This document shows, in pieces, positions 3,043-22,529 of a stretch of DNA of 25,306 bases (position 1 is its first letter; each line of letters begins with the position of its first letter). The notes beneath the pieces are model-generated. The model was not told the DNA's origin and ran no database searches. It saw nothing but the letters and a program-made list of their open reading frames with translations. This stretch comes from an uncultured Bifidobacterium sp. GTDB taxonomy: Bacteria > Verrucomicrobiota > Verrucomicrobiia > Limisphaerales > JADJPG01. The translations under genes were made by a program, and so were the position numbers. Location of the stretch: positions 1 to 25,306 of the forward strand of contig CAZZAQ010000002.1 of the NCBI GenBank assembly GCA_964652165.1, given 5' to 3'.

Positions 3043-3163
3043 CAGTGTTCAGTAATCAGTATTCAGTATTCAGTGTTCAGTTTGCAGTGGCCGCTGGCAT
3101 GTTAAGCTGGAGCGCACAACGAATGACTGAAAACTGACTACTGATTACTGATTACTGATTACT
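3043..3163. repeat. Heptamer tandem repeats in inverted arrangement (CAGTRTT)n ... (TTACTGA)n
   Basis: cagtgtt cagtaat cagtatt cagtatt cagtgtt... (3043-3088) and aaactga ctactga ttactga ttactga ttact (3126-3163) between prfB and trpC. Confidence 0.9.
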
Positions 3164-5405: not shown

Positions 5406-5488
5406 CGCTGGGAGCGCCGGCTTCCAGCCGGCAAGTCGCACTTCCAGGCGGACAGGGACGCGCCGGCAGGATGCCGGCGCTCCCAGCG
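5406..5488. repeat. REP-type doublet (GGGAGCGCCGGC family)
   Basis: CGCTGGGAGCGCCGGC (5406-5421) vs GCCGGCGCTCCCAGCG (5473-5488), perfect 16-bp inverted repeat with internal GCCGGC hairpins. Confidence 0.8.
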
Positions 5489-5532: not shown

Positions 5533-6687
5533 ATGACTCTGAGAGCAATCCTCGCACTGAGCGCCCTCGCCCTCGCCGCGTTCTGGCCCTCGGCTGCCCG
5601 CGGGCACACTCCAAGCGAAACGCACCTGACCCTGTTCATCACCCCGACCAACGTCGCCGGGCAGTGGGACGTCGCCCTCCTCGATTTGCAGCAGGGTCTG
5701 CGAATCGAGTCCGACGCCTTCAAGGCGCTGGCGGCGGAAGAACAACAGCGGCGCCTGGAGGCGCTGGCGATTGACACCGTCACCAGCCTGGAAGTGAAGG
5801 CGGACGGAATGGCGCTGGCCTTAAGCGTCACGGACCTCGAGACGGTGACCCTCAATCTCGGGGAGTATGCCCGCGTGAAGTTCGCCGCGCGGGCCGGCAG
5901 CAACCGCATCGCGGCCATCTCCATCAACGCCCGCTCGCTCTTCCGAGTGGACACGAATATGCACGGCTTGCTGCGCGTGGAGCATGATGGCCGGATGGAG
6001 ACGGCGACCTTCAGCGCGGGCGCTTCCACGCGCGTTTTCACACTGGCCGAGCCGGCGAGCCGTGTGGCGCAGGCCTTGAGCTACCTGCGCGAAGGCGCCG
6101 AGCACATCTGCAAGGGGCCGGATCACGTTCTCTTCCTCCTCGCCCTGTTGTTACCCGCAGTGCTGAAGCGGGAGGCCGGCCAGTGGAAAGGAGCCGAGGC
6201 GTTCCGGCCCGCGGCGTTGAACATCGTGAAGATCGTGACGGCGTTCACCATCGCGCATTCCGTCACCCTCAGCCTCGCCGTGCTCGGCATCGTCTCGGCG
6301 CCCGCGCGCGTGGTGGAGCCGCTGATCGCCGCGTCCGTGATTGCCGCCGCGGTGAACAACGTGCGGCCGTGGTTTGGCGAGCGAGGGTGGATGGTCGCGT
6401 TCGGTTTCGGCCTGGTTCACGGATTGGGGCTGGCGGGCGGGCTGATCGAGTTTGGGTTGCGGCAGGAGGCGTTGGTATTGGCGCTGGTCAGCTTCAACGT
6501 CGGGGTCGAAGTGGGCCAGCTCGGCATCGTCGCCCTGTTCCTGCCGGTGGCTTTCGGACTTCGACAGACCAGGTTCTATCGCGAGGTCACCTTGAAATTC
6601 GGCTCCGCCGCCGTCGCGCTAATCGCGGCGGTGTGGATGGCTCAACGGTTGTTCAACTTCAAGGTGCTGCCGGCGTGGATGGGGTGA
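5533..6687 (+). CDS. HupE/UreJ family membrane protein with N-terminal periplasmic domain
   Basis: Signal peptide ending AARG-H; GAEHICKGPDHVLFLLALLL, TAFTIAHSVTL, EPLIAASV, FGFGLVHGLG, SFNVGVEVGQL motifs. Confidence 0.9.
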   Translation: MTLRAILALSALALAAFWPSAARGHTPSETHLTLFITPTNVAGQWDVALLDLQQGLRIESDAFKALAAEEQQRRLEALAIDTVTSLEVKADGMALALSVTDLETVTLNLGEYARVKFAARAGSNRIAAISINARSLFRVDTNMHGLLRVEHDGRMETATFSAGASTRVFTLAEPASRVAQALSYLREGAEHICKGPDHVLFLLALLLPAVLKREAGQWKGAEAFRPAALNIVKIVTAFTIAHSVTLSLAVLGIVSAPARVVEPLIAASVIAAAVNNVRPWFGERGWMVAFGFGLVHGLGLAGGLIEFGLRQEALVLALVSFNVGVEVGQLGIVALFLPVAFGLRQTRFYREVTLKFGSAAVALIAAVWMAQRLFNFKVLPAWMG

Positions 6688-6694
6688 GGCAGCG

Positions 6695-6860
6695 GAATGG
6701 GGTGATGGAGTATTGGAGTGATGGAGTGATGGAGTGATGGAGTATTGGAGTATTGGGGTGTTGGAGTATTGGGGTGCTCGCGGATTCCACTCGGCTCCGA
6801 GTCAGCCCAGCACTCCATTACTCCATCACCCCATTCCATTGCCTCACTCCCTCACTCCCC
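6695..6860. repeat. Octamer tandem repeats in inverted arrangement (GGAGTRTT/GGAGTGAT)n ... (CACTCCAT)n
   Basis: About 10 units at 6695-6776 and complementary units at 6811-6860 between the convergent HupE and DUF58 stops. Confidence 0.9.
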
Positions 6861-7816: not shown

Positions 7817-7942
7817 GTCGTTTGATGACCCACCCGCCCGGTAGCGTCAGTTAAGCGAGCCATTGATTGACGGTGGGTGTGCATTCCGTTACAAAATGGT
7901 ATCCCGTCCGGGCACTTTACTGGGCGGTGTCCGTTAGGCGTA

Positions 7943-8043
7943 GCTGCGACCGTGAAGTCGCGGGCTGGATGTTCGAGTGATAACGAAATCGATGCCGACG
8001 CCCAGCCTCCAGCGTCCCCGTCCCGCGACCTCACGGTCGCAGC
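7943..8043. repeat. REP-type doublet (GTAGCTGCGACCGTGAGGTCGC family)
   Basis: GCTGCGACCGTGAAGTCGCGGG (7943-7964) vs CCCGCGACCTCACGGTCGCAGC (8022-8043), 22 bp with 1 mismatch. Confidence 0.85.
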
Positions 8044-8103
8044 CACGCGGATCACCTACGCTGAGCGGCTCCGCCGTTGCCGGTGTGGCGCGATGAACTT
8101 TCT

Positions 8104-11100
8104 ATGCGAACTGCGATACTCTCGACTGCCAGCCTGAGCGGACTCCTGCTCCTGCCCTCCACCCTGACCGCGGCGGATGACAAGCCTGCCGCCGGTCCGG
8201 TCAGCTACTACCGCCAGGTCCGCCCGATCCTCCAGGCCCAATGCCAAGGCTGCCACCAGCCGGCCAAGGCCAAGGGCGGCTACGTGATGACGGATTTCAA
8301 AAAGCTGCTCGCGGGCGGCGAGAACGAAGGCAAGGCGGTCATCGCGGGGCAACCCGGGAAATCGGCGCTCGTGAAGATGATCACCCCGGAGGCGGGTTCT
8401 ACAGACGCGGAGATGCCCAAGGGCAAACCGCCCCTGCCGGCGCACGAGATCGAGCTCATCCGCAATTGGATCACCCAGGGCGCCAGGGACGACACCCCGG
8501 CCGACGCGGTGAAACATTATGACATGGAGCATCCCCCGCTCTATTCGCGGCCTCCGGTGGTCACTTCGATCGATTATTCGCCGGACGGCAAGCTGCTCGC
8601 CGTCGCCGGCTACCACGAAGTGTTGCTGCACAAGGCCGACGGCTCGGGCATCGTCGGCCGGCTTGTCGGGATGTCCGACCGCGTGCAGTCGGTCGCGTTT
8701 TCGCCCGATGGCGCGTCGCTCGCCGTGGCGGGCGGCCAGCCGGGGCGCGTCGGCGAAATACAAATCTGGGACGTGCCGCGGCGCAAGCTGGCGCTCTCCG
8801 TGCCCATCACTTACGACACGGTTTACGGCGTGAGCTGGTCGCCGGACGGGCAGCACGTCGCGTTCGGATGCGCCGACAACACCGTGCGCGCCATCGAGGC
8901 GAAGTCTGGAAAGGAAATCCTCAAGCAAGGTTCCCACAACGATTGGGTGCTCACGACGGTGTTCTCGACCAACGGCAGCCACGTCATCTCCGCCGGCCGC
9001 GACATGTCCACCAAGCTCACCGAACTGTCGACACAGCGATTCGTGGACAACATCACCTCGATTACCCCCGGCCAACTGCGCGGCGGCGTCCACTCGATCG
9101 CCCGCCATCCTGACCGCGATGAAATTCTCGTCGGGGGCGCCGACGGCGTGCCGCAGATCTACCGCGTCTTCCGCAAGACCAAGCGCGCCATCGGCGACAA
9201 CGCCGCGCTCCTCCGCCGCTTCCCGCCGATGGAAGGCCGAATCTTCAGCGTGGACTACAGCCCGGACGGCAAACGCATCGTCGCCGGCAGCGCGCTCAAC
9301 GGCACGGGCCAGGTGCACGTCTTCAGCGCCGAGTTCGATTCCAGGCTTTCGACGAACCTGGTGAAGATTCTCGAAAAAACCGTTGGCGAGCAGAAGCCGG
9401 AGGAGAAGGCGGAGATCGAGAAGTACGTCACGAGCGACGTGAAGCTGCTCGCGACGAACACGCTCCAGTCCGCCGTGTATGCCGTCAGCTTCAGCCCCGA
9501 CGGCTCGCGCATCGCCATCGCCGGCGGCGACGGCCGGGTCCGCCTGCTCAACGCAACGAACGCCGCCGTGGTGAAGGAGTTCGCCGCCGCACCCGGCAGC
9601 CGCCGACGTAAGGAGGCGGATGCGATGGTGAACGTGGGCGGTCCGCCTCCTTACGTCGGCGGCTACGACGCCAAGGAGCCACTCCCGGCCACTGATCAGG
9701 TCGTCGCCCTCGACGTGCAGCCGGCTGCGGTGAAGTTCACCAGCCGCAACGAAACCCTCCAGTTAATCGTCACCGCGAAGCTCGCTTCCGGCGACGCGGC
9801 GGACGTGACCCGCGGGGCTTCATTCAAACTCTCGGGCAAGTTCGCCGCCGTGTCCGCCAACGGCCTCCTCACTCCTCTGTCCAACGGCAAGGGAAAGCTC
9901 GAAATCGCCTTTGCCGGCAAGACCGCGGCCGTGCCCGTGCAAATCGCCGGCCTGAAGAACAGCTTTGACGCCGACTTCGTCCGCGACGTGAACCCGGTGC
10001 TCAGCAAGCTCGGCTGCAATGCCGGAACCTGCCACGGAGCGAAGGAGGGCAAAAACGGCTTCAAGCTCTCGCTCCGCGGCTACGATCCCGAGTTCGACGT
10101 GCGCGCGTTCGCCGACGATTTCGCCGGCCGCCGGGTGAACCTCGCCGCGCCGGACGAGAGCCTGCTGCTGCTCAAGGCCATCGCCGAAGTGCCGCACGAA
10201 GGCAGCCGCCGCGCCGAGCGCGATTCGCGCTATTATCACGTGATGCGCCAGTGGATCGCCGACGGCGCCAGGCTCAATGCCGCGACGCCCAAAGTCGCGC
10301 GAATCGAAGTTTTTCCCCGGAACCCGGTCGTCCAAACCATTGGCTCGCGCCAGCAACTCCGCGTCGTCGCCAGCTACGCCGACGGACTTACTCGCGACGT
10401 GACGGCCGATGCCTTCATCGAGAGCGGCAACACCGATGTGGCCCGCGCCGACGACGGGGGCCTCGTGACGAGCCTGCGCCGCGGCGAGGCGCCCGTTTTG
10501 GCCCGCTACGACGGCGCCTACGCCGCCACCACGCTCACCGTCATGGGCGACCGCGCCGGCTTCGTCTGGGAACAGCCCGAAACCTGGAACCGCATCGACG
10601 AAATCGTCGCCGCCAAATGGCAGCGCATGAAGATTCTTCCCAGTGGCCTCAGCACGGACACCGAGTTCCTCCGCCGCGTCACTCTCGACCTCACCGGCCT
10701 GCCGCCAGGTGCGGACGACGTTCGCAGGTTTCTCGCCGATTCGCGCGACGCGCGCGCCAAGCGCGATGAGTTGATCGACCGCCTCATCGGCAGCCCGGAC
10801 TTCGTGGATCACTGGGCCAACAAGTGGGCCGACCTCCTCCAGGTGAACCGCAAATTCCTTGGCGAAGAAGGGGCGAAACTGTTCCGAGACTGGATTCGTC
10901 AGGAGGTCGAAGCGAACACGCCGTACGATCAGTTTGCCCGGAAAATCCTCACCGCCTCCGGATCGAACAAGGAAAATCCCGCCGCCAGCTACTACAAGAT
11001 TCTCCGCACGCCGGCCGAGACGATGGAGAACACGACGCACTTGTTCCTCGCCACGCGGTTCAACTGCAACAAGTGCCACGACCATCCTTTCGAGCGCTGG

Positions 11101-14073: not shown

Positions 14074-15543
14074 ATGATTCACCTCCCCGGCGGCACCTGT
14101 AGCGACCTGTGCAATTCTGACCTCAGACTCTCCCGGCGCGCACTGTTGCGGCTCGGCGGCTCGTCCATCCTCGGGCTTTCGCTCGGCGGAATGTTCCAGC
14201 TCCGCGCGATGGCCGGCGAGGCCCGCAAGGGGGGCGGCCCAGGCTGGGGCAAGGCCAAAAGTGTCATCATGGTTTATCTCCAGGGCGGCCCGTCGCACCT
14301 TGACCTGTGGGACCCGAAGGAAAACGTCCCCGACAAGATTCGCTCCGAGTTCAAGGCCATCCCCACGAAGATTCCCGGCATTCAATTCACCGAAATCCTC
14401 CCGCGCCTGGCGAAGGTGAACGACAAGATGACGATGATCCGGTCGATGAGCTACACGCCCAACGGCTTGTTCAACCACACTGCGGCCATCTACCAAATCA
14501 TGACCGGTTACACGACCGACAAGGTCAGCCCGTCCGGCCAACTCGAGCCGCCCAACGCGAAGGACTTCCCGAACTTCGGCTCCAATATCATCCGCTTCAA
14601 GCCTGTCACCGAGCCGATGCTTCCCTTCGTCATGCTCCCGCGCCCGCTCCAGGAGAGCAACGTCGTCGGCAAAGGCGGTGGCGCGGGCTTCCTCGGCAAG
14701 GCCTTCGATCCCTACACGCTCTACCCGGAGGGAGACGACATGAACTTGTCCAAGATGGACAACATCAAGACCGACGACCTCAAGCTGCCGCCCGAAGTCT
14801 TCAGCGTCCGCCTCGAACGCCGCGCCAAACTTCGCGACGCGCTCACCGAGGCGATGCCGGAGATCGAGAAGGCCGTCGAGTCCTACAACCTCGATTCCTA
14901 TTACGACCAGGCGCTGAACCTCATCGTCTCGGGCCGCGCCCGCGAAGCGTTTGACCTGACGCGCGAAACCGAGAAAGTCCGCGAGTTCTACGGCCGGAAC
15001 ACGTTTGGCCAAAGCTGCCTGTTGGCTCGCCGCCTCGTTGAAGCCGGCACCCGCGTCGTCGAAGTCGTCTGGCCGAAGGTCGCCAACTCCGACAACCATT
15101 CCTGGGACCACCACGTCGGCCTGACCAAGCGCATGAAAGAGCAGAGCGGCCCAATGCTCGACACCGGCTTCTCCGCGCTCATCGAGGACCTCGACGAGCG
15201 CGGCCTGCTTGCCGACACGCTCGTCGTGGCCATCGGCGAATTCGGACGCAGCCCGGAGAAGGGCGTCAGCACCAGCGGCAACGGCAACAGCGCCGACGGG
15301 CGCGATCACTGGCCCTATTGCTACACCGCGTGCATCGCTGGCGCCGGCATCAAGCGCGGCTACGTCCACGGAAAATCCGACAAGACCGGCTCCAGCCCCG
15401 CCGAAGACCCGACGCACCCAATGGAACTGCTGGCCACCATCTACCACGCCATCGGCATCGACCCCGAGACCATCGTTTACAACCATCTCAAGCAACCGCG
15501 CGAACTGGTAAAGGCCAAGGCCGTGACGAAGCTCTTCGCCTAG
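14074..15543 (+). CDS. DUF1501 domain protein (sulfatase-like fold, putative Tat substrate)
   Basis: SRRALL twin-arginine motif; [55 protein letters not shown] motifs. Confidence 0.93.
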
Positions 15544-15602
15544 AAAGGGGTCTCTAACAATCGACAACGTAGTCGGGCGGAGGACACTACAGCCGACTTA
15601 CG
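15543..15602. repeat. Cassette-delimiting repeat, copy 1 (right arm degenerate)
   Basis: GAAAGGGGTCTCTAACAATCGACAAC...AGTCGGGCGGAGGACACTACAGCCGACT; starts at the last base of the DUF1501 stop codon. Confidence 0.85.
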
Positions 15603-15773
15603 ACGCTATTGAGACTGAAAATTTTCCGGCCCGGATTTTGAAAGTCTCAAGGAGAGGACTTCATTTTCCGGTGCCGGGATTCAGCAAAGTATCTGCTTCA
15701 TTTCTTGACCCCTGATAGTTGAAAGCCCATCGGCTTTTCAGGTCACAAAAAGTAATTTTATATTCAGTTCAGT

Positions 15774-16295
15774 TTATCTTTTCGGTTTCGCCTTCCGTGC
15801 CAATTCTTCTTTAATGGCTGACCTAATTGAATAGGTGTATCTTTTAATCCTCTTACCCCTAACCTGCTTGAGTAGATCGGCAAGGTTTGCAGGCATAGGA
15901 CCGTTCGGGTTCCAATCCGGGTTTATGGTGAACCTTTCCAACTCCGTCCAGTACAGCGTGGTTTCATAGTCATCATTTTTGTTGTACTCGCAACGCAAGT
16001 CTTCCACTCTTCTGGCATGGAGATAAATCTTTGGAAACTGTCCGTAGTAGTGCTCCGGGTTTATGTCCCGGTACGCTCTCATAAAGTAAGGGTCTTTGCC
16101 CGTTGAAGCGAAGCGACTCATCTTCTCGCAGAGTGTGTAAGTGTACTCGGAAGAAAACAGAATAGGGAGCAAGAATCCGATAGTGTCTTTGGCGATTTGC
16201 GAGCGCAGGATTGACACGACTTTGCATCTTCCGTTGTGTTCCGACTCCGATCCCTCCCATGTAATCAACCATGCCTTTTTGCCTTTAGATTTCAT
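15774..16295 (-). CDS. Hypothetical protein (173 aa), lower-GC accessory gene
   Basis: Longest ORF of an AT-rich segment, ATG start, protein-like composition; no family recognised. Confidence 0.75.
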   Translation of the reverse strand: MKSKGKKAWLITWEGSESEHNGRCKVVSILRSQIAKDTIGFLLPILFSSEYTYTLCEKMSRFASTGKDPYFMRAYRDINPEHYYGQFPKIYLHARRVEDLRCEYNKNDDYETTLYWTELERFTINPDWNPNGPMPANLADLLKQVRGKRIKRYTYSIRSAIKEELARKAKPKR

Positions 16296-16300
16296 GGCGG

Positions 16301-16329
16301 ACTCTGGTCACGCTCCCGCCAGCGGTCAA
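16301..16329 (-). promoter_or_regulatory. Putative leaderless-type promoter of the 173-aa gene
   Basis: Minus strand TTGACC-17 nt-CAGAGT-5 nt-ATG(16295). Confidence 0.4.
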
Positions 16330-16366
16330 CCTTGACTTTGCCAGCCCGATCCCTTTTAGTGGATGA

Positions 16367-16819
16367 ATGAATATGAAAACTTCAGATTCAGTAGTTTCGG
16401 TGCCGGGCAGATTTCTCACTCCTGATGATCCCCATTGCTATTGTTCACTCGCCAAAGATTATCTGAACGCCTCAGCGATCCTAAATACCAATTTCAAAAA
16501 TGCGCCTCAATGGCCTACGTTTTCTTGTACTTGCCAATCGTTGGAACTTTTTCTGAAAGCATTTTTGAGGGTACAGGGCATTTCAGCAGATGACCTAAAA
16601 TGGAAATTTGGTCATGATCTTCGGTTACTTTTCGACAAGGCTAGGGAACTCGGATTGAGTTTCGATTCAATTGATAAACTTGGAAAGTTTATCCCCTTAA
16701 TCAACCAAGCCCATAAAGATCGTGATTTCCAATACGAGAAAATAGGAGAACGGGAATTGCCATTTTCTAATGACCTTATTTCGCTTGTGAAAGAACTCGG
16801 CCAAAGACTTGATTACTGA
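16367..16819 (+). CDS. HEPN-domain protein (150 aa)
   Basis: LAKDYLNASAIL...CQSLELFLKAFL...KFGHDLRLLF pattern typical of the HEPN four-helix bundle; AT-rich. Confidence 0.75.
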   Translation: MNMKTSDSVVSVPGRFLTPDDPHCYCSLAKDYLNASAILNTNFKNAPQWPTFSCTCQSLELFLKAFLRVQGISADDLKWKFGHDLRLLFDKARELGLSFDSIDKLGKFIPLINQAHKDRDFQYEKIGERELPFSNDLISLVKELGQRLDY

Positions 16820-16840
16820 ACCAGCTTAGTAAACAATTCC

Positions 16841-16930
16841 GACAGGGGTCAGTTCTAACAAACGACAATGATTCACGCAGTCGGGCGGAGGACACTACAG
16901 CCGAATGGGATTGTCAATTCTTAGAACCCC
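16841..16930. repeat. Cassette-delimiting repeat, copy 2
   Basis: GACAGGGGTCAGTTCTAACAAACGACAATGATTCACGCAGTCGGGCGGAGGACACTACAGCCGAATGGGATTGTCAATTCTTAGAACCCC; arms GTTCTAA/TTAGAAC and GACAAT/ATTGTC. Confidence 0.9.
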
Positions 16931-17597
16931 ATTCCCGATGCCGCTTAATGGTCTGGTCAGACCCGCAAAGGAAATCCAGGTCGCGCTTAAACTTCTCGTA
17001 GGCTTCGTAGCCACTGGTGTCCTGCTCAATTCTAAAGTTACTTGCGGCTGGATAAAGTTTGGCGGCCCGTCGTGCGCGTACCGCCGTGCGGTAGAGTTCA
17101 CTAACAATTTCACGACCATCCTTGTCGAAGCCTCGGAGTTTCCACCGTACAATAAGAAATGGAATCCTCTCATCCACCACCTTGGGCCAAGAAGCGTCGA
17201 AAGCGAGTGGGTAACGCCTCATCCAGTGAACCAGCCCGGCCAAGGAAGCCGAGACACCTAGAAGAATGAGAAACGGCCTCTGCATCTTCCGCCGGGTTTC
17301 CCAGCGGTACAAATCGATCAGATCAGCTGTACCGACAGCCGGATTGATTTCGTTGGTTGTATATCCACTCGCTTTCAAGAAACTTTCGCCGCGTCTCCGC
17401 GAATCTTCCTTTAGATAGTTCAAGAATTCCTCTGCCACAGGGTCTGGAGGAACCCGAAAACCCGCCAGCCAGCCGCCCGTTCCCGCAAGGGCAAGAGCAA
17501 GAAACGTATTCTTCCAAAAGGTCAGCTTTCGCCACAGACGCCTTGGATTGAAAGCCGCGCCCGGCGAGGCTGTTGCTCCAAGTTGCGCGTTTGCCAT
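16914..17597 (-). CDS. Hypothetical membrane protein with two predicted TM segments (227 aa from ATG 17597; alternative TTG start at 17612)
   Basis: Hydrophobic FLALALAGTGGWLAGF and FLILLGVSASLAGLVHW segments; fills the space between repeat copies 2 and 3; stop codon lies inside copy 2. Confidence 0.7.
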   Translation of the reverse strand: MANAQLGATASPGAAFNPRRLWRKLTFWKNTFLALALAGTGGWLAGFRVPPDPVAEEFLNYLKEDSRRRGESFLKASGYTTNEINPAVGTADLIDLYRWETRRKMQRPFLILLGVSASLAGLVHWMRRYPLAFDASWPKVVDERIPFLIVRWKLRGFDKDGREIVSELYRTAVRARRAAKLYPAASNFRIEQDTSGYEAYEKFKRDLDFLCGSDQTIKRHREWGSKN

Positions 17598-17627
17598 TTC
17601 GCCTTTCTTCAACTATTCCTTGCTACT

Positions 17628-17709
17628 GAAAGGGGTACACAATCGACAATGAGTCATGCAGTTGGGCGGAGGACACTACAGCCGACGGGGATTGTCAATT
17701 GTTAGAACC
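17628..17709. repeat. Cassette-delimiting repeat, copy 3
   Basis: GAAAGGGGTACACAATCGACAATGAGTCATGCAGTTGGGCGGAGGACACTACAGCCGACGGGGATTGTCAATTGTTAGAACC. Confidence 0.9.
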
Positions 17710-17764
17710 TGTTTCGGTTCGCCGCTTGAGTTCTCTCCGATTATCGCCGTAGATCTCAGAAGTC

Positions 17765-19735
17765 ATGTTGACTCTTTCCGGCATCCGCAAAACCTTCGGC
17801 GGGCGCGTCCTGTTCGACGACGTCACGCTCCAGGTCAACCGCGGCGACCGCATCGGGCTGGTCGGCCCGAACGGCGCGGGCAAGACCACCCTCTTTTCCA
17901 TCATCCTCGGCGAGCAGTCGGCCGACGCCGGCGAGATCTCGCGGGAACGCAACCTCTCCGTCGGCTATCTGCCGCAGGAAAGCGGGCCGGTTGGAGACGA
18001 AACCGTCATCGAACTGGCCACGGCCATCACGCCCGAGTTCACGCGGCTCCGGCGCATCCTCAAGGCGTGGGACGCCAATCATCCGGTCCAGGCCGCGCAT
18101 CCGGAGGAGATCCACGACGACGTGCACGACCGCTTCAACGAACTGGGCGGCTACCGGCTCGAAGCCAGGGCCAAGCAAATTCTCGCCGGCCTCGCTTTCC
18201 GCGAGCGCGACTTCGACCGGCCCGCCCGCGAGATGAGCGGCGGCTGGGTCATGCGCGCCCACCTCGCCCGCCTGCTCACGCAGGAGCCGGACCTCCTGAT
18301 GCTCGACGAGCCGACGAACCATCTCGACCTGCACACGCTGCTCTGGTTTCAAGGCTGCCTCAAGAGCTATCCCGGCGGCATCCTGATCATCTCGCACGAT
18401 CGCGAGCTCCTCAACGACCTCGTCGGCCACGTCGTGGAGATTCGCCAAAGCCGGCTCATCCATTACCGCGGCAACTACGACGATTACCTCGTCCAGCGCG
18501 AGGCCTTCGAGCAACAGCAACTGGCCGCCTTCAAGCACCAGGAGCGCGAGATCGGCCGGCTGATGGAGTTCGTCAACCGTTTTCGCGCCAAGAACACCAA
18601 GGCCACGCAAGCCCAGGCCAAGCTCAAACAAATCGACCGCATGGAGAAGGTCGCCGCGCCCACGGCCGACGACAAGAAGATCGACTTCGAGTTCCCGCAG
18701 CCGCAGCGCAGCGGCCGGCGCGTCATCAAGCTGGAGAACATTCACCAGGCCTACGGCGAGAACGTCGTTTATCGCGGGATGAACTTCGAGGCCGAGCGCG
18801 GCCAGCGCATCGTGCTTGTCGGCCCCAACGGCGCGGGCAAATCGACGCTGCTAAAGCTCCTCGCCGACGTGCTCCAGCCGCAGTCCGGCACGCGCGTCCT
18901 AGGTCACAACGCCCGGTCCGGCTACTATTCGCAATATCGCGTGGACGTGCTGAACCCGGCGCGCAGCGTGCTCGACGAGGCGCTCGACACGCCGCAACGC
19001 GTCACCGAACAGTTCGTCCGCACGCTGCTCGGCTCCTTTCTCTTCCGCGGCGACGACGTGTTCAAGAAAGTCAGCGTCCTGAGCGGCGGCGAGAAAAGCC
19101 GGCTCGCCCTGGTGAAGCTCCTGCTCGACCCGCCGAACCTTCTGCTGATGGACGAACCGACCACGCACCTGGACATGGCGAGCATCGACGCGCTGGCCTT
19201 CGCGCTCGATCAATTCGAGGGCACGCTCATTTTCATCAGCCACGACGTCTATTTCATCCGCGCGCTGGCCAACCACGTCGTCCACATCGACGCCGGCCGG
19301 CTGACGCATTATCCCGGGCCGTACCAATATTACCTGGACAAGACCAAGGCCGGGTCCGAGCGCGCCGCGCTGACGGCTCGCGGCAGGGACGCGCTGCCGC
19401 GCGTCCTTGATCGAGCCAGAGGGGACGAGGACGCGCGGCAGCGCGTCCCTACCGCATCGCGCAGGGAGCAGAAGCGCCACGAGGCCGAGACCCGCCAGGC
19501 GCGCTCGCGCTCGCGCAAGGCGCAACAGCAGGTCGTTCACAAGCTGGAGAAGCAGATTCAGGAACTCGAAGCCCGCCAGACCGAACTGACCGCCGGCCTG
19601 GAGAAGCCCGAGACATACGAGAAGCCCCTCCAGGCCGTTTCGATCAATCGCGAGCTGGCCGGCGTCCAGGAAGACCTCGCCACCCTGACCGCGCAGTGGG
19701 AAGGAGAGGCCACGAAACTCGCTGCGTTGGAATAG
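17765..19735 (+). CDS. ABC-F family ATP-binding protein (ribosome-associated, Uup/YheS-like) with C-terminal coiled coil
   Basis: Two NBDs (GPNGAGKT / GPNGAGKS; MSGGWVMR / LSGGEKSR; LDEPTNHLD / MDEPTTHLD), no TM segments, interdomain linker and C-terminal helical hairpin. Confidence 0.95.
   Translation: MLTLSGIRKTFGGRVLFDDVTLQVNRGDRIGLVGPNGAGKTTLFSIILGEQSADAGEISRERNLSVGYLPQESGPVGDETVIELATAITPEFTRLRRILKAWDANHPVQAAHPEEIHDDVHDRFNELGGYRLEARAKQILAGLAFRERDFDRPAREMSGGWVMRAHLARLLTQEPDLLMLDEPTNHLDLHTLLWFQGCLKSYPGGILIISHDRELLNDLVGHVVEIRQSRLIHYRGNYDDYLVQREAFEQQQLAAFKHQEREIGRLMEFVNRFRAKNTKATQAQAKLKQIDRMEKVAAPTADDKKIDFEFPQPQRSGRRVIKLENIHQAYGENVVYRGMNFEAERGQRIVLVGPNGAGKSTLLKLLADVLQPQSGTRVLGHNARSGYYSQYRVDVLNPARSVLDEALDTPQRVTEQFVRTLLGSFLFRGDDVFKKVSVLSGGEKSRLALVKLLLDPPNLLLMDEPTTHLDMASIDALAFALDQFEGTLIFISHDVYFIRALANHVVHIDAGRLTHYPGPYQYYLDKTKAGSERAALTARGRDALPRVLDRARGDEDARQRVPTASRREQKRHEAETRQARSRSRKAQQQVVHKLEKQIQELEARQTELTAGLEKPETYEKPLQAVSINRELAGVQEDLATLTAQWEGEATKLAALE
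19385..19450. repeat. REP doublet inserted in frame inside the ABC-F CDS
   Basis: Perfect 23-bp inverted repeat AGGGACGCGCTGCCGCGCGTCCT (19385-19407) / AGGACGCGCGGCAGCGCGTCCCT (19428-19450) followed by AC, giving a CTAC end. Confidence 0.88.
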
Positions 19736-19863: not shown

Positions 19864-20067
19864 ATGCCGCCCCAAAACTGTGCTGGCGCCACTGACTCCC
19901 TCGCCCCCTCCGAGGGGGAGAGGGCCGGGGTGAGGGGCCGTCGCTCCGCCCTCCGCGAAATCGACCGCTTCTTCAAAGCCGACCACGCCGTCATCTTCTC
20001 CCCTCACCGTCCGCGAAATTCTGGAAGAGCAGATTGCAAGGAAGCTGCCTTAGAAACTTCATCGTGA
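19864..20067 (+). other. Short ORF (67 aa) running through a REP; possible gene remnant
   Basis: ATG sits at the expected +1 of the promoter; the segment LREIDRFFKADHAVIFSP has host-like codons, but the ORF contains a REP and no family is recognisable. Confidence 0.25.
19898..19937. repeat. REP (CCCCTCACCCCGGCCCTCTCCC family), reverse orientation
   Basis: CCCTCGCCCCCTCCGAGGGGGAGAGGGCCGGGGTGAGGGG; 19914-19937 is the perfect reverse complement of 21978-22001. Confidence 0.85.
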
Positions 20068-20126: not shown

Positions 20127-21797
20127 ATGAAAGCACAACTCTTCGATGCAGGCGTGGACAGGCTTGCCACGCTCTTGGAGGAAGGTGCTCGCGCTTCAAG
20201 GAGATCGGTCCACAGGTTTGTGGAACCGATGCGCGGAACACTCAAGCGTGCCCAAAGCAATCGCCATCAAATCGTTTTTGGGAGGCGTGGATCGGGCAAG
20301 AGCAGCTTGCTGTACAAAACGGCTCACGATCTTTCCAGCAAAGGGTACCCAGTCGCGTCAATTGACTTAGAGCCGTTCAAAGGGCACCATTACCCCGACA
20401 TCCTAATCAGCGTACTCTTGGCAACGCTTATGAAGCTGGAAAAGTGGCTCCTAATTCAACCAGTCCAAAAGGGAGACAGGGTGTGGTGGACAGCCGGGAT
20501 CGCAAGACGGAAGTCAGAGAAGGAGCTTCAAATAGCAAAACTGAACGCCCTCCTCAAAACATTCATCAACGAACTAAAACAACAACTTCACCTTACTGAT
20601 TCCTCCAAGCTGACCAGCGTTGTCGAGCACGCAGAATCGGCCAAATCGCAAGCGAAAGCCAAGTCACAAGCAGGCGTAAGAATCGCAGGGCTTGACGAAA
20701 GTATAGAAGCTGAGATCGCAGGTGAGCAACAGCAGTCCTTGAAAACGGCAACAAATGAAGAGTCAAAGAGGTCGAAAATCGACTTCTTACATCGTAGGAT
20801 CCTCGATTATCAGGAACTGTTTTCTACTCTTACCGAGCTAACGGACTCTGACTGCTACTTATTCCTAGACGATCTGTATCAGATTATTCGCACAGACCAA
20901 GCTCGGTTATTGGATTATTTTCATCGAATAGCCAAAGGGCAGAATGTCTGGCTAAAGGTGGGAACAATCAAGCATCGCTCTTCGTGGTATCTACATTCGC
21001 CTCAGCCGATGGGGCTCAAGCTCGGCGACGATGCAGATGATATCAACTTGGATCTAACTTTGGAGAAGTTCTCGGGAACGCGAACGTTTTTGAGCGAGAT
21101 ACTTGACGCCTATATTCAAGGAGCACATGCTCCTCGGCGAAATGCCCTAGTTTCTGAAACCGGGATGGAGCGTCTCATAATCGCAAGCGGAGGTGTTCCT
21201 AGGGATTTCTTGGCTTTGTTTCGTAGGTCAATCGGCGAGGCACGCGAGAGGCTCACTCGCGACCCTCAACATCCTCGCGGCGGAAAGATCGGCGCGGAAG
21301 ATGTGAATATGGCGGCCGGGGAGTATGGGGATAGGAAAAAAGAGGAATTCCAGAAGGATACATCTGAGGACGATGGACCACTTCAAGAAGCATTTGAAAA
21401 GATTCGTCTTTTCTGCCTTCAGCGCAATCGGTCAAACGTCTTCCTCATCGAGCAAGATGGCAACGCCGTTGATTTCGACCGCGTTCAAGAGTTAATCGAC
21501 TTACGCTTGGTACACCACGTAAAATCGCGCGTTACTGTGCCCAACATGACTGGGAAAGTGTTCCGGGCGTTGCTGCTCGATTTCTCTCAATACACTGGCG
21601 CGCGGAAACAGAGCAATATTGAGATAATTGAGTTTTGGAAGGGTGACAGGGAGACGCTCCGGAAACTGGTCTTGATTTATGATCCGAGGGTCGCTCTGGA
21701 GGATTTACAAAAGCAGATCGAGGAGTCGCGGGCGAAATCCGAACGGACAGCTGCGTCCCCCAACTTACAGCCGGAGTTAGAGCTTCCCGGTGTGTAA
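20127..21797 (+). CDS. Stand-alone P-loop NTPase (STAND / ORC-CDC6-like), lower-GC accessory gene
   Basis: Walker A GRRGSGKS, Walker B YLFLDD, ASGGVPRDF helical-module motif, C-terminal winged-helix-like ELIDLRLVHHV; codon usage differs from neighbours. Confidence 0.85.
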   Translation: MKAQLFDAGVDRLATLLEEGARASRRSVHRFVEPMRGTLKRAQSNRHQIVFGRRGSGKSSLLYKTAHDLSSKGYPVASIDLEPFKGHHYPDILISVLLATLMKLEKWLLIQPVQKGDRVWWTAGIARRKSEKELQIAKLNALLKTFINELKQQLHLTDSSKLTSVVEHAESAKSQAKAKSQAGVRIAGLDESIEAEIAGEQQQSLKTATNEESKRSKIDFLHRRILDYQELFSTLTELTDSDCYLFLDDLYQIIRTDQARLLDYFHRIAKGQNVWLKVGTIKHRSSWYLHSPQPMGLKLGDDADDINLDLTLEKFSGTRTFLSEILDAYIQGAHAPRRNALVSETGMERLIIASGGVPRDFLALFRRSIGEARERLTRDPQHPRGGKIGAEDVNMAAGEYGDRKKEEFQKDTSEDDGPLQEAFEKIRLFCLQRNRSNVFLIEQDGNAVDFDRVQELIDLRLVHHVKSRVTVPNMTGKVFRALLLDFSQYTGARKQSNIEIIEFWKGDRETLRKLVLIYDPRVALEDLQKQIEESRAKSERTAASPNLQPELELPGV

Positions 21798-21885
21798 TCA
21801 GGAAGGAGTCAGAATGGGAATGGCGCGCGGCAGGATGGAAGCAGCTCCTGCGGCGCATTTTGGTGTCCCACTAAAGGCAGCCTCA

Positions 21886-21972
21886 CCGCCCGCCTACTAC
21901 GCTTCCGCCCAGGGCCAAACCGGCGCGGTGCTCCGGCTGGCGTTGCACGACATCATCAAGGGCCAGGAATAG
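21886..21972 (+). pseudogene. Remnant of the N-terminus of an endonuclease I (EndA/Bsn-like) family nuclease domain
   Basis: PPAYYASAQGQTGAVLRLALHDIIKGQE* resembles the YYxxAxGxTGxxLxxALHDIIxGH start of that family (recalled pattern, not a database hit); preceded by degenerate signal-peptide-like sequence. Confidence 0.5.
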
Positions 21973-21977
21973 CGAAT

Positions 21978-22529
21978 CCCCTCACCCCGGCCCTCTCCCC
22001 CGGTGGGGCGAGTGAGTGAACCCACACCCGGCCCTCATAAGCTTCGTAGCATCCGGCGTGAGCCGGATCATTCTAATTGGCCAGGAGATCAGATCCGGCT
22101 CACGCCGGATGCTACGGTTCAGGGGGCGCGCCGTTCGGAACCCAAAACGAACTTCAACGTGTTCGGCGGCTGGAACCGGGAGCATCGACAGGGCCGTAGG
22201 CCCGTCATGTGACAGCCTGGGCTGGAGCGAGCATCGCGAGCGGAGGCCCAGGTAACGTGCCCCATAAAATCCCCTGAGGCCTGATAGGCCGGAACCATTC
22301 TGCGGCGTTCCGCCTCTCGCCCAACGTCCCGCCCTTACAGGGCGGGCAGATTCGTTTGGGATGTTTACCTGGGGCTTCGCGCTCCGCGCTTCACCCCAGG
22401 CTGTCACATCACGGGCTTTCAGCCCTGCCGCCCAGGGCCAAACCGGCGCGGTGTTCCGGCCGGCGTTGCACGATACCATCAAGGGCCAGCCTTAACTCGA
22501 ATTCGCGCGGACAAGGCTGTCCGCGCTCC
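21978..22529. repeat. REP mosaic (BIME-like cluster of at least 4 different palindrome families)
   Basis: CCCCTCACCCCGGCCCTCTCCCCC (21978-22001); perfect 25-bp inverted repeat 22045-22069/22092-22116; 21-bp inverted repeat 22201-22221/22395-22415; hairpin GCGCGGACAAGGCTGTCCGCGC 22505-22526. Confidence 0.85.
22428..22489 (+). repeat. Second copy of a 62-bp direct repeat (first copy 21905-21966)
   Basis: 58/62 identical by manual alignment; translates AQGQTGAVFRPALHDTIKGQ. Confidence 0.9.

Follow-up and report, generated by a model that had tools for sequence, protein, structure and literature searches.

Which element separates the small low-GC genes that lie between a DUF1501 gene and the gene of an ABC-F ATPase in an uncultured member of the Limisphaerales (Verrucomicrobiota) from sediment, and does this element take part in bringing them there? 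The locus belongs to a stretch of 25,306 nucleotides (contig CAZZAQ010000002.1 of assembly GCA_964652165.1, forward strand), which is referred to as the window and lies on contig C2 of the metagenome-assembled genome (MAG) G000 (5.1 Mb, 849 contigs, 72% complete). A first-pass annotation, which was made from the sequence alone, had described three copies of an unrecognised palindromic element in this region and had interpreted it as an integron-like array of gene cassettes. To judge from their sequence, the repeats are dimers of terminal inverted repeats (TIRs), i.e. miniature gene-less derivatives of a verrucomicrobial TIRtron. The elements or their remnants border most modules of an islet that differs from strain to strain, and we see a somewhat better than even chance that these TIR dimers of a Y1 transposon mark, and probably serve as, the joints of this islet. 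What is new is this context, the TIR dimers at the module borders of a defence islet, and not the element itself.

For the comparison, genomes and MAGs are designated by G, the loci or contigs that were compared by L and contigs by C, each followed by a number. Close strains, which are 90-95% identical, were gathered via the 90% protein cluster that contains the DUF1501 gene. The order-level comparison set comprised 201 genomes and a wider motif search covered 185,000 species genomes. Moreover, junctions in the runs X1 to X4 were read from Logan contigs and not from single reads.

The three repeats in the window

The repeats E1, E2 and E3 (Table 1) belong to an element of about 95 bases and all have the same orientation. 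Their 22-nt core GGGCGGAGGACACTACAGCCGA has exactly three occurrences in the window, compared to 0 expected in 100 shuffles, and the rest of the 5.1-Mb assembly contains no further copy, even if three mismatches are allowed. The exact count and the alignment of the copies thus bear out the annotated layout of three copies with an invariant core. E2 and E3 share 83% identity over 89 nt, and E1 matches them in the left arm and the core alone. Outside the window, E2 is 90.8% identical to a copy on the metagenome contig L142, and E3 is 95.7% identical to copy a of L142 and 91.5% identical to the element of the close strain L181. E3 is therefore nearer to the copy of another organism than to E2, to which it is 90.1% identical, and this argues against recent local copying.

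The 2.2 kb of DNA between the copies has a G+C content of 0.41-0.55, compared to 0.60-0.68 in the flanks, as the annotation had stated. It had also placed host DNA directly outside the first and the third copy. Indeed, the homology to relatives stops at 15543 and restarts at 17717; for instance, L178 and L180 are 92.7% identical to the window up to 15543, unrelated thereafter and 93% identical again from 17717. The statement that each copy forms a long hairpin applies to intact relatives of the element (z-scores of -8 to -9.6) and not to the copies in the window, which fold weakly (z-scores of -0.5 to -2.3) because they are degraded. The three-repeat layout is not an assembly artefact because the contig L120 of a JGI metagenome independently repeats 4244 bp of the locus with 99.88% identity. 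Furthermore, neither an Rfam scan at the gathering thresholds nor ARAGORN gave a match in the window, indicating that the element is not a known RNA and not a tRNA-derived att site. The strain is barely covered in the runs X3 and X4, and the depth on E2 alone in X4 hints that the element is present elsewhere too.

Relationship of the repeats to Y1 transposons

The complete element consists of a left arm, a central stem-loop that is tagged by GTAG or GCAG, and a right arm. The arms, which have the form GGGGTCAG-TTCTAACAATCGACAAT and its inverse, are about 28 nt long and start on the outside with GGGGTCAG. The stem between the arms (GTCGG...CCGAC) encloses a loop of 16 nt, and this tagged central stem-loop is a unit that resembles repetitive extragenic palindromes (REPs). 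Of 12 aligned full copies, all carry TCGACA in the left arm; 11 possess a right arm, and in 10 of these it carries TTGACA when read on the other strand. The interiors of the aligned copies belong to at least five unrelated, self-complementary types. As single-stranded DNA, the dimer folds back into one long hairpin, and intact elements such as copy a of L142 and the element of L181 form a single uninterrupted stem of 28-34 bp.

The arms are found at the ends of Y1/HUH transposase genes. In G083 and in a second MAG, both arms bracket the relic of a Y1/HUH gene (570-660 bp), of which the protein has the N-terminus MPRP...AIY and the HUH motif NHFH. Moreover, a right arm lies ahead of the ATG of a Y1 gene in at least eight loci, with a distance of 20-50 nt to the genes or relics in G003, G083, L146, L147, L155, L159 and L162, and an arm is located behind the Y1 C-terminus in L144 and L164. 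The associated protein matches the Pfam family Y1_Tnp (PF01797, 54.6 bits) and has about 390 amino acids (aa) including a C-terminal extension. Its relatives are multi-copy, with 19 matches in G083, and often decayed.

TIRtrons encode TIR-associated tyrosine transposases (TIRYTs), and their TIRs, which share the sequence GGGGWSAS, may be single, paired as dimers or grouped (Di Nocera et al. 2013, PMC3733652). The outer tag GGGGTCAG, which fits GGGGWSAS, is present in E2, in the copies of C92 and L142 and in others; GGGGTCGG, GGGGTCTC and GGGGTACA are variants of the outer tag that are one to two bases off. Since the arms are the termini of Y1 genes and carry the GGGGWSAS tag, the copies in the window are TIR dimers. 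The element is therefore not an unrecognised one but joins a kind that has been described before. The annotation had pointed to recombinase genes as possible neighbours of the element. The arms do adjoin Y1 genes, the integron integrase IntI does not track with the element, and an IS110-type gene accompanies it in one case.

The element family is scattered. In G000, arms with other interiors make up one full copy on C92 and two on C157, and about eight contigs bear a left arm by itself; the genome contains five dimers and about eight single arms (about 13 motif matches). The long-read MAG G207 has seven scattered single arms. Grouped copies are found in the window, in L142, in L181 and in G162, and solo copies or single arms are located in ordinary intergenic DNA, for instance in C92, L143 and G003. 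Two unrelated metagenome contigs also carry an element with the same core, namely L142 (two copies) and L143. A 16-nt arm motif was detected in 12 of the 201 genomes of the order (reversed-pattern control: 0), and among the 185,000 species genomes it is nearly confined to the Verrucomicrobiota.

Two other classifications were considered and rejected. Inspection of the sequences beside the copies C92, C157a, C157b, L142a, L142b and G003, a small sample with imprecise ends, revealed no direct repeat of 2-9 nt that could be a target-site duplication; a MITE (miniature transposable element with inverted repeats) of the DDE type, including the Tn3-derived inverted-repeat miniature elements (TIMEs), was discarded on this ground. 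The arms may also resemble the 38-bp inverted repeats of the Tn3 family (GGGGTC...CACGC), a likeness that is superseded by the TIRtron match. Finally, the sequence TTGACA in the right arm might suggest a promoter, for which the copies in the window lack a convincing -10 box.

As a side observation, other repeat families on the contigs C319, C366, C467 and C541 of G000 start with the same GGGGTCAGTCCT tag, and one of them is located directly upstream of the Y1 gene on C541. The shared tag suggests that there may be several TIRtron subfamilies within G000.

Strain variation between the DUF1501 and ABC-F genes

Close strains share the order of a gene for a giant PSCyt protein, the DUF1501 gene, variable DNA and the ABC-F gene; in relatives with at most 81% nucleotide identity, the DUF1501 and ABC-F genes are not adjacent. 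The annotation had proposed to compare this junction between close relatives, and the cargo does vary: in strains that are 90-95% identical, there are at least five states, including one inversion. In the window, the order is E1, module A, E2, module B and E3. In L181, the stop codon of the DUF1501 gene is directly followed by a complete element; next come 1.4 kb of low-GC DNA that harbours a SUFU-like gene, then a left-arm element, a gene for a Uma2 nuclease and another left-arm element. The third state (L178, L179 and L180) comprises an element remnant, a 210-aa gene on the minus strand, a left arm, the Uma2 gene on the minus strand, a duplicate of 168 nt of the ABC-F 5' end and a 560-aa gene on the minus strand. 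In L183 and L184, an element remnant with a right arm is followed by the module with the 210-aa gene, which is inverted compared to L178. L182 contains a DNA methylase gene and no element.

In most sampled strains of the lineage, the element sits directly behind the stop codon of the DUF1501 gene, and in the window and in L181 the elements at the module borders have the same orientation. For the segment with the 210-aa gene, which L184 and L178 carry in opposite orientations, one end lies at a right arm and the other at a left arm. A sister strain in run X1 shows the stop codon of the DUF1501 gene, 13 other bases and an E2-like left arm, without E1 and without module A. Furthermore, L178 carries at 8908-9075 a 168-nt copy (87% identity) of the ABC-F 5' end, which is fused to the outer tag of an arm and precedes the genuine ABC-F gene by 1.9 kb. 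The duplicate resembles what a capture event of the Campbell or one-ended type would leave behind.

The layout of an element, low-GC cargo and another element is not restricted to this junction. It is also present on C157 of G000 and on the metagenome contig L142, in which a 210-nt segment with one open reading frame (ORF) of about 70 aa is packed between two copies. The contig C789 of G000, which is syntenic with L142 (91-92% identical), has a different small gene at this place and no element. The idea of the annotation that other copies might flank low-GC ORFs, too, thus holds for C157 and L142 and does not hold for the solo copies in ordinary spacers.

Comparison with integron cassettes

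The interpretation as a CALIN (attC sites clustered without an integron integrase) proposes that the hairpins are attC-like sites of non-canonical cassettes, which are recombined in trans by the integrase of the genome. G000 indeed encodes a bona fide IntI on contig C291 (TIGR02249, 419 bits compared to a cut-off of 265), of which the gene is cut by the contig end. The ORFs at the junction are tightly packed and mostly co-oriented. Moreover, CALINs are common and half of them are found in genomes with an IntI (PMC4889954). The three sites lie within 2.2 kb, and CALINs are clustered from at least two sites within 4 kb, here with an IntI in the genome. The inner arm TCTAACAATCG together with GTTAGAA/GTTAGGC resembles the R'' box plus spacer and the R' box of local attC sites, and the family consensus TTCTAAC...GTTAGAA differs from RYYYAAC/GTTRRRY by one position at each outer end. 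Among the copies in the window, E2 has the boxes TTCTAAC and CTTAGAA, E3 has GTTAGAA without an AAC box and E1 has TCTAAC without an R' box.

The structure of the element does not fit to this interpretation. Genuine attC sites of the order, which were folded in parallel with the intact elements and are located beside intI in G140 and G060, have an R box of 7-8 bp, an unpaired spacer and a bulged L box. The intact copies have neither an unpaired central spacer nor a bulged L box, and their palindrome continues for about 12 nt outside the supposed R boxes (GAAAGGGGTCAG/CTGACCCCTTTC). In L178 and L181, several of the separators consist of one arm alone and are unable to fold; moreover, the arms bracket Y1 genes. 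In addition, the break in E1 lies at the base of the central hairpin, and this copy is devoid of the right arm that should have survived a G|TT crossover. The distribution of the integrase points in the same direction: IntI scores above the curated cut-off in 68 of the 201 genomes of the order and in five of the 12 motif-bearing genomes, among which it is no commoner, and the motif is present in the IntI-less genomes G003, G083 and G106. We therefore consider CALIN cassettes quite improbable, and the annotation as integron, attC or CALIN is not supported in view of the continuous stem, the Y1 link, the solo copies, the distribution of IntI and the breakpoint of E1.

Two features of C291 concern the integrase gene itself. 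In the IntI gene (C291:1-1140, L004), a run of about 30 C is followed by about 20 G at 247-291, which is probably a sequencing or assembly artefact. Moreover, C291 begins 56 nt upstream of the IntI start codon, and attI and the cassettes are hence missing from the assembly.

Possible role of the elements at the module borders

The structure of E1 and E3 suggests how the array in the window might have been assembled. A resident element behind the DUF1501 gene would have been split in such a way that its left half and core became E1 and its right arm became part of E3. Between the two halves, two modules would have been added, and with each of them would have come a left arm and a core of its own (E2 and E3). 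A split resident element is consistent with the GTAG variant that E1 shares with the resident element of L181, with the break after the stem at 15597 and with the right arm of E3, which is closest to that of L181. In general terms, a module that carries a copy of the element would join a resident copy at the element. This could occur if single strands were cut and joined in the Y1 manner at the 3' foot of the central hairpin and the transposase acted in trans, or equally by ordinary (RecA-dependent) homologous recombination between copies of the element. Replacement of the whole islet via the conserved flanking genes occurs as well. What the data show is the identity of the element, its link to Y1 genes, the variation between strains and the position of elements at module borders; we infer a causal part of the element in insertion, as well as the enzyme that would act on it.

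Several observations weigh against TIR dimers as joints of the islet. L182 has cargo at the junction without any element, which argues that the element is not required for the turnover of the islet. The breakpoints within the elements differ, as E1 breaks after the stem and the L178 copy at 8217 inside the loop. The duplicated 168 nt from the ABC-F 5' end in L178 speak for integration by homology and against a site-specific enzyme. No excision product or circle was seen in the Logan contigs, which do not give read-level junctions. Among the loci examined, a full-length Y1 gene with both arms was not found, and the nearest Y1 gene of G000 (on C541) runs off its contig and has the outer tag alone upstream. 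Finally, homologues of the cargo genes exist elsewhere without the element, and two identical copies in G003, one of them beside an IS110-family gene, flank housekeeping genes of normal G+C content.

Some of these observations would be expected if the element were a passive bystander, a serious alternative that we consider the less probable one. In this case, the turnover would be due to homologous recombination in the DUF1501 and ABC-F flanks, similar to hot spots of the minimal-mobile-element type, and TIR dimers would accumulate or hop locally only because non-essential, AT-richer spacers tolerate them. The element-free cargo of L182 and the duplicate in L178, which resembles homology-driven integration, speak for such a scenario. 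So do the solo copies in the ordinary spacers of C92, L143 and G003 and the boundaries of the variable DNA, which fall on the same two positions of the flanks in every strain. A bystander would not be expected to have all three same-core copies of a 5.1-Mb assembly within 2.2 kb and in one orientation, nor to recur on both sides of low-GC cargo in C157 and L142. Moreover, the ORFs are packed tightly against the elements, the ends of the one inverted module lie at arms and the copies within the array are not most closely related to one another.

A further possibility is that a different site-specific recombinase, such as a DEDD transposase of the IS110/IS1111 type, targets the element and delivers the modules. 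Such transposases are known to choose palindromic repeats. An IS110-family (DEDD) gene was observed about 115 nt past a TIR dimer in G003:C41 (L059:9519-10535), where the outer right tag is replaced at that point, and this case suggests that hairpins of TIR dimers are also targets of IS110 elements. As an explanation for the modules, delivery by such an enzyme is highly improbable: no such gene is present in or near the array of the window or other arrays, the insertion does not make full flanking copies and G003:C41 is a single example.

Coming back to TIR dimers as the joints, a more far-reaching version is conceivable in which the dimer is the recombination site of a Y1/HUH-driven, single-strand cassette system that is analogous to integrons. 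A transposase of the TIRYT type or the REP-associated tyrosine transposase (RAYT) type would cut at the 3' foot of the GTAG-tagged hairpin in the centre, and modules consisting of cargo and one element would be pasted into the resident element, which would build up arrays of defence genes in one orientation. We regard this version as rather unlikely. Of the gene-capture site with defence cargo that the annotation had proposed, the strain-variable hot spot and the elements at most module borders are supported, and the integron and the unrecognised element are not.

Relation to known systems

The elements share with TIRtrons the Y1/HUH gene between long inverted repeats, the GGGGWSAS tag, the moderate abundance of the family and the occurrence as singles, dimers and groups (PMC3733652). 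In contrast, the elements described here are verrucomicrobial (Pedosphaera-like) and have a GTAG/GCAG-tagged stem-loop between the arms. Furthermore, the dimers border strain-variable foreign modules, a setting that is missing from the section of the TIRtron description consulted (PMC3733652). REP doublets forming hairpins (REPINs) and their RAYTs are also non-autonomous hairpin doublets that are linked to Y1 enzymes and have a central GTAG by a short palindrome (Bertels and Rainey 2011; PMC5581495). In contrast to REPINs, which are present in tens to hundreds of copies, there are about 5-15 copies per genome, the arms are not palindromic and the Y1 genes are multi-copy and often decayed, similar to insertion sequences, instead of a single domesticated copy. 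Membership in the REPIN-RAYT system was rejected because of the arms without internal palindrome, the about 13 motif matches in G000 and the multi-copy Y1 genes; the central stem-loop alone is REP-like.

In elements of the IS200/IS605 family, both ends carry sub-terminal hairpins, terminal inverted repeats are lacking and the TnpA protein has about 150 aa. This family was rejected, too, as the ends are inverted repeats of 28 nt and the protein, which includes a C-terminal extension, comprises about 390 aa. IS605 stem-loops at lipoprotein genes of Borrelia are comparable insofar as hairpin ends of a Y1 transposon survive without the transposase beside unrelated genes (Delihas 2009, PMC2775950). 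The Borrelia case involves short sub-terminal hairpins at the 3' ends of genes on plasmids, whereas here long TIR dimers are found with swappable modules at a chromosomal hot spot (PMC2775950). With integrons and CALINs, the locus has in common compact and mostly co-oriented foreign ORFs, hairpins of the same orientation, a strain-variable cargo and an integrase located elsewhere (Cury et al. 2016, PMC4889954). Unlike attC sites, the element has no unpaired central spacer and no extrahelical bases, and the differences extend to the stem past the R boxes, the Y1 link, the single-arm separators and the E1 breakpoint. In the minimal mobile elements of Neisseria and the pdif/XerCD modules of Acinetobacter plasmids, a fixed site holds different small cargo in each strain. 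Minimal mobile elements are exchanged via the homology of the flanks alone and pdif modules use Xer sites of 28 bp. Here, a transposon-derived hairpin is located at the joints instead.

Flanking genes and cargo

The ORF layout given by the first-pass annotation was confirmed, and the features of the junction are summarised in Table 1.

Table 1 Features of the variable junction and its flanks in the window
Feature	Position	Strand	Description	Basis or remarks
DUF1501 gene	14074-15543	+	Conserved left flank	Pfam PF07394, 344 bits; stop codon TAG (15541-15543) abuts E1
E1	about 15543-15615	+	Left arm and core; non-canonical right side	
E1, first part	15543-15597	+	Left arm and central GTAG-tagged stem-loop; core at 15575-15596	Homology to L181 ends at 15597
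E1, second part	15598-15615	+	Non-canonical right side with weak pairing to the left arm (GTCTC/GAGAC); module A starts	Alignment, fold, homology break at 15597
Module A, gene 1 (173 aa)	15774-16295	-	Conserved family, function unassigned	
Module A, gene 2 (150 aa)	16367-16819	+	Orphan, possibly HEPN-like	
E2	16841-16935	+	Complete TIR dimer: left arm, core, right arm with shortened outer tag	
Module B gene (227/232 aa)	16914-17597	-	Predicted protein with two transmembrane segments	Stop codon inside the right arm of E2 (copy 2); ATG 31 nt from E3
E3	17628-17716	+	Left arm with 6-nt deletion, core, right arm closest to the resident element of L181	
ABC-F ATPase gene	17765-19735	+	Conserved right flank	Pfam ABC_tran (two domains) and ABC_tran_Xtn

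The three cargo proteins gave no significant match in PADLOC, NCBIfam and Pfam. The 173-aa protein has 60 homologues with 43-67% identity, none of which carries a Pfam domain, and the genes of these homologues adjoin WYL, TIR (in the sense of the protein domain), HicB and HNH genes. The AlphaFold2 (AF2) model of the 173-aa protein has a mean predicted local distance difference test (pLDDT) score of 87.8; its matches are uncharacterised folds only, and a Foldseek search against the PDB gave no match. For the 150-aa protein, one weak homologue was identified among 5.8 billion proteins, and the single-sequence AF2 model is unusable (pLDDT of 39.5). Its label as a HEPN protein comes down to a sub-threshold match to Pfam PF05168 (E=0.2), and a BLASTP comparison with the partner genes of P0001 homologues revealed no similarity to the 150-aa protein. 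The 227-aa protein has one homologue (65% identical), which is encoded beside HicAB in another metagenome, with no element nearby. If the Uma2, SUFU-like and methylase genes of the other strains are added, the islet carries genes that are predicted to be of the conflict type.

Other repeats in the window

A second low-GC segment (0.46-0.52) is enclosed by a perfect inverted repeat of 24 bp (G-rich/C-rich; 19914-19937 and 21978-22001) and contains a gene for a 556-aa STAND/ORC-CDC6-like ATPase (20127-21797). In L178, the gene after the ABC-F gene is a different, sigma-70-like one, and the segment may be a second variable insertion. Another REP family (ACCTGGGGC...CAGGCT...GGGCTTTCAGCCC) is present in direct and inverted copies (21875-21966 and 22398-22489; 22186-22430). 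This family also flanks an IS200-like Y1 gene with one internal stop codon in G000 (C153:3200-4600), which is the classic REP-RAYT arrangement.

Moreover, spacers of the window contain many G+C-rich, perfect or near-perfect REP-like hairpins (1431-1498, 5406-5488, 7938-8048 and 22045-22116), and two REP-like families are located in-frame within the giant PSCyt gene and the ABC-F gene (9642-9665 and 19380-19455). Short-period tandem arrays that form long inverted repeats are found in intergenic DNA at 6681-6792 (inverted partner 6802-6853), 3043-3163 and 1750-1886. Their units are the 8-nt sequence ATGGAGTG, the 7-nt sequence CAGTATT and ACGTGAA/ACGTAAA.

Implications

As the locus warns, small foreign ORFs with palindromic repeats between them can look like integron cassettes. 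The 173-aa family with its confident but unmatched fold adds a candidate family of conflict genes. To our knowledge, the host role of REP and TIR repeats and of their Y1 transposases (RAYTs and TIRYTs) has been unclear since they were first described. Here, TIR repeats stand at the joints of a hypervariable defence islet, together with a candidate cut site. The possibility that such hairpins may act as recombination joints for accessory genes has thereby become a concrete and testable hypothesis.

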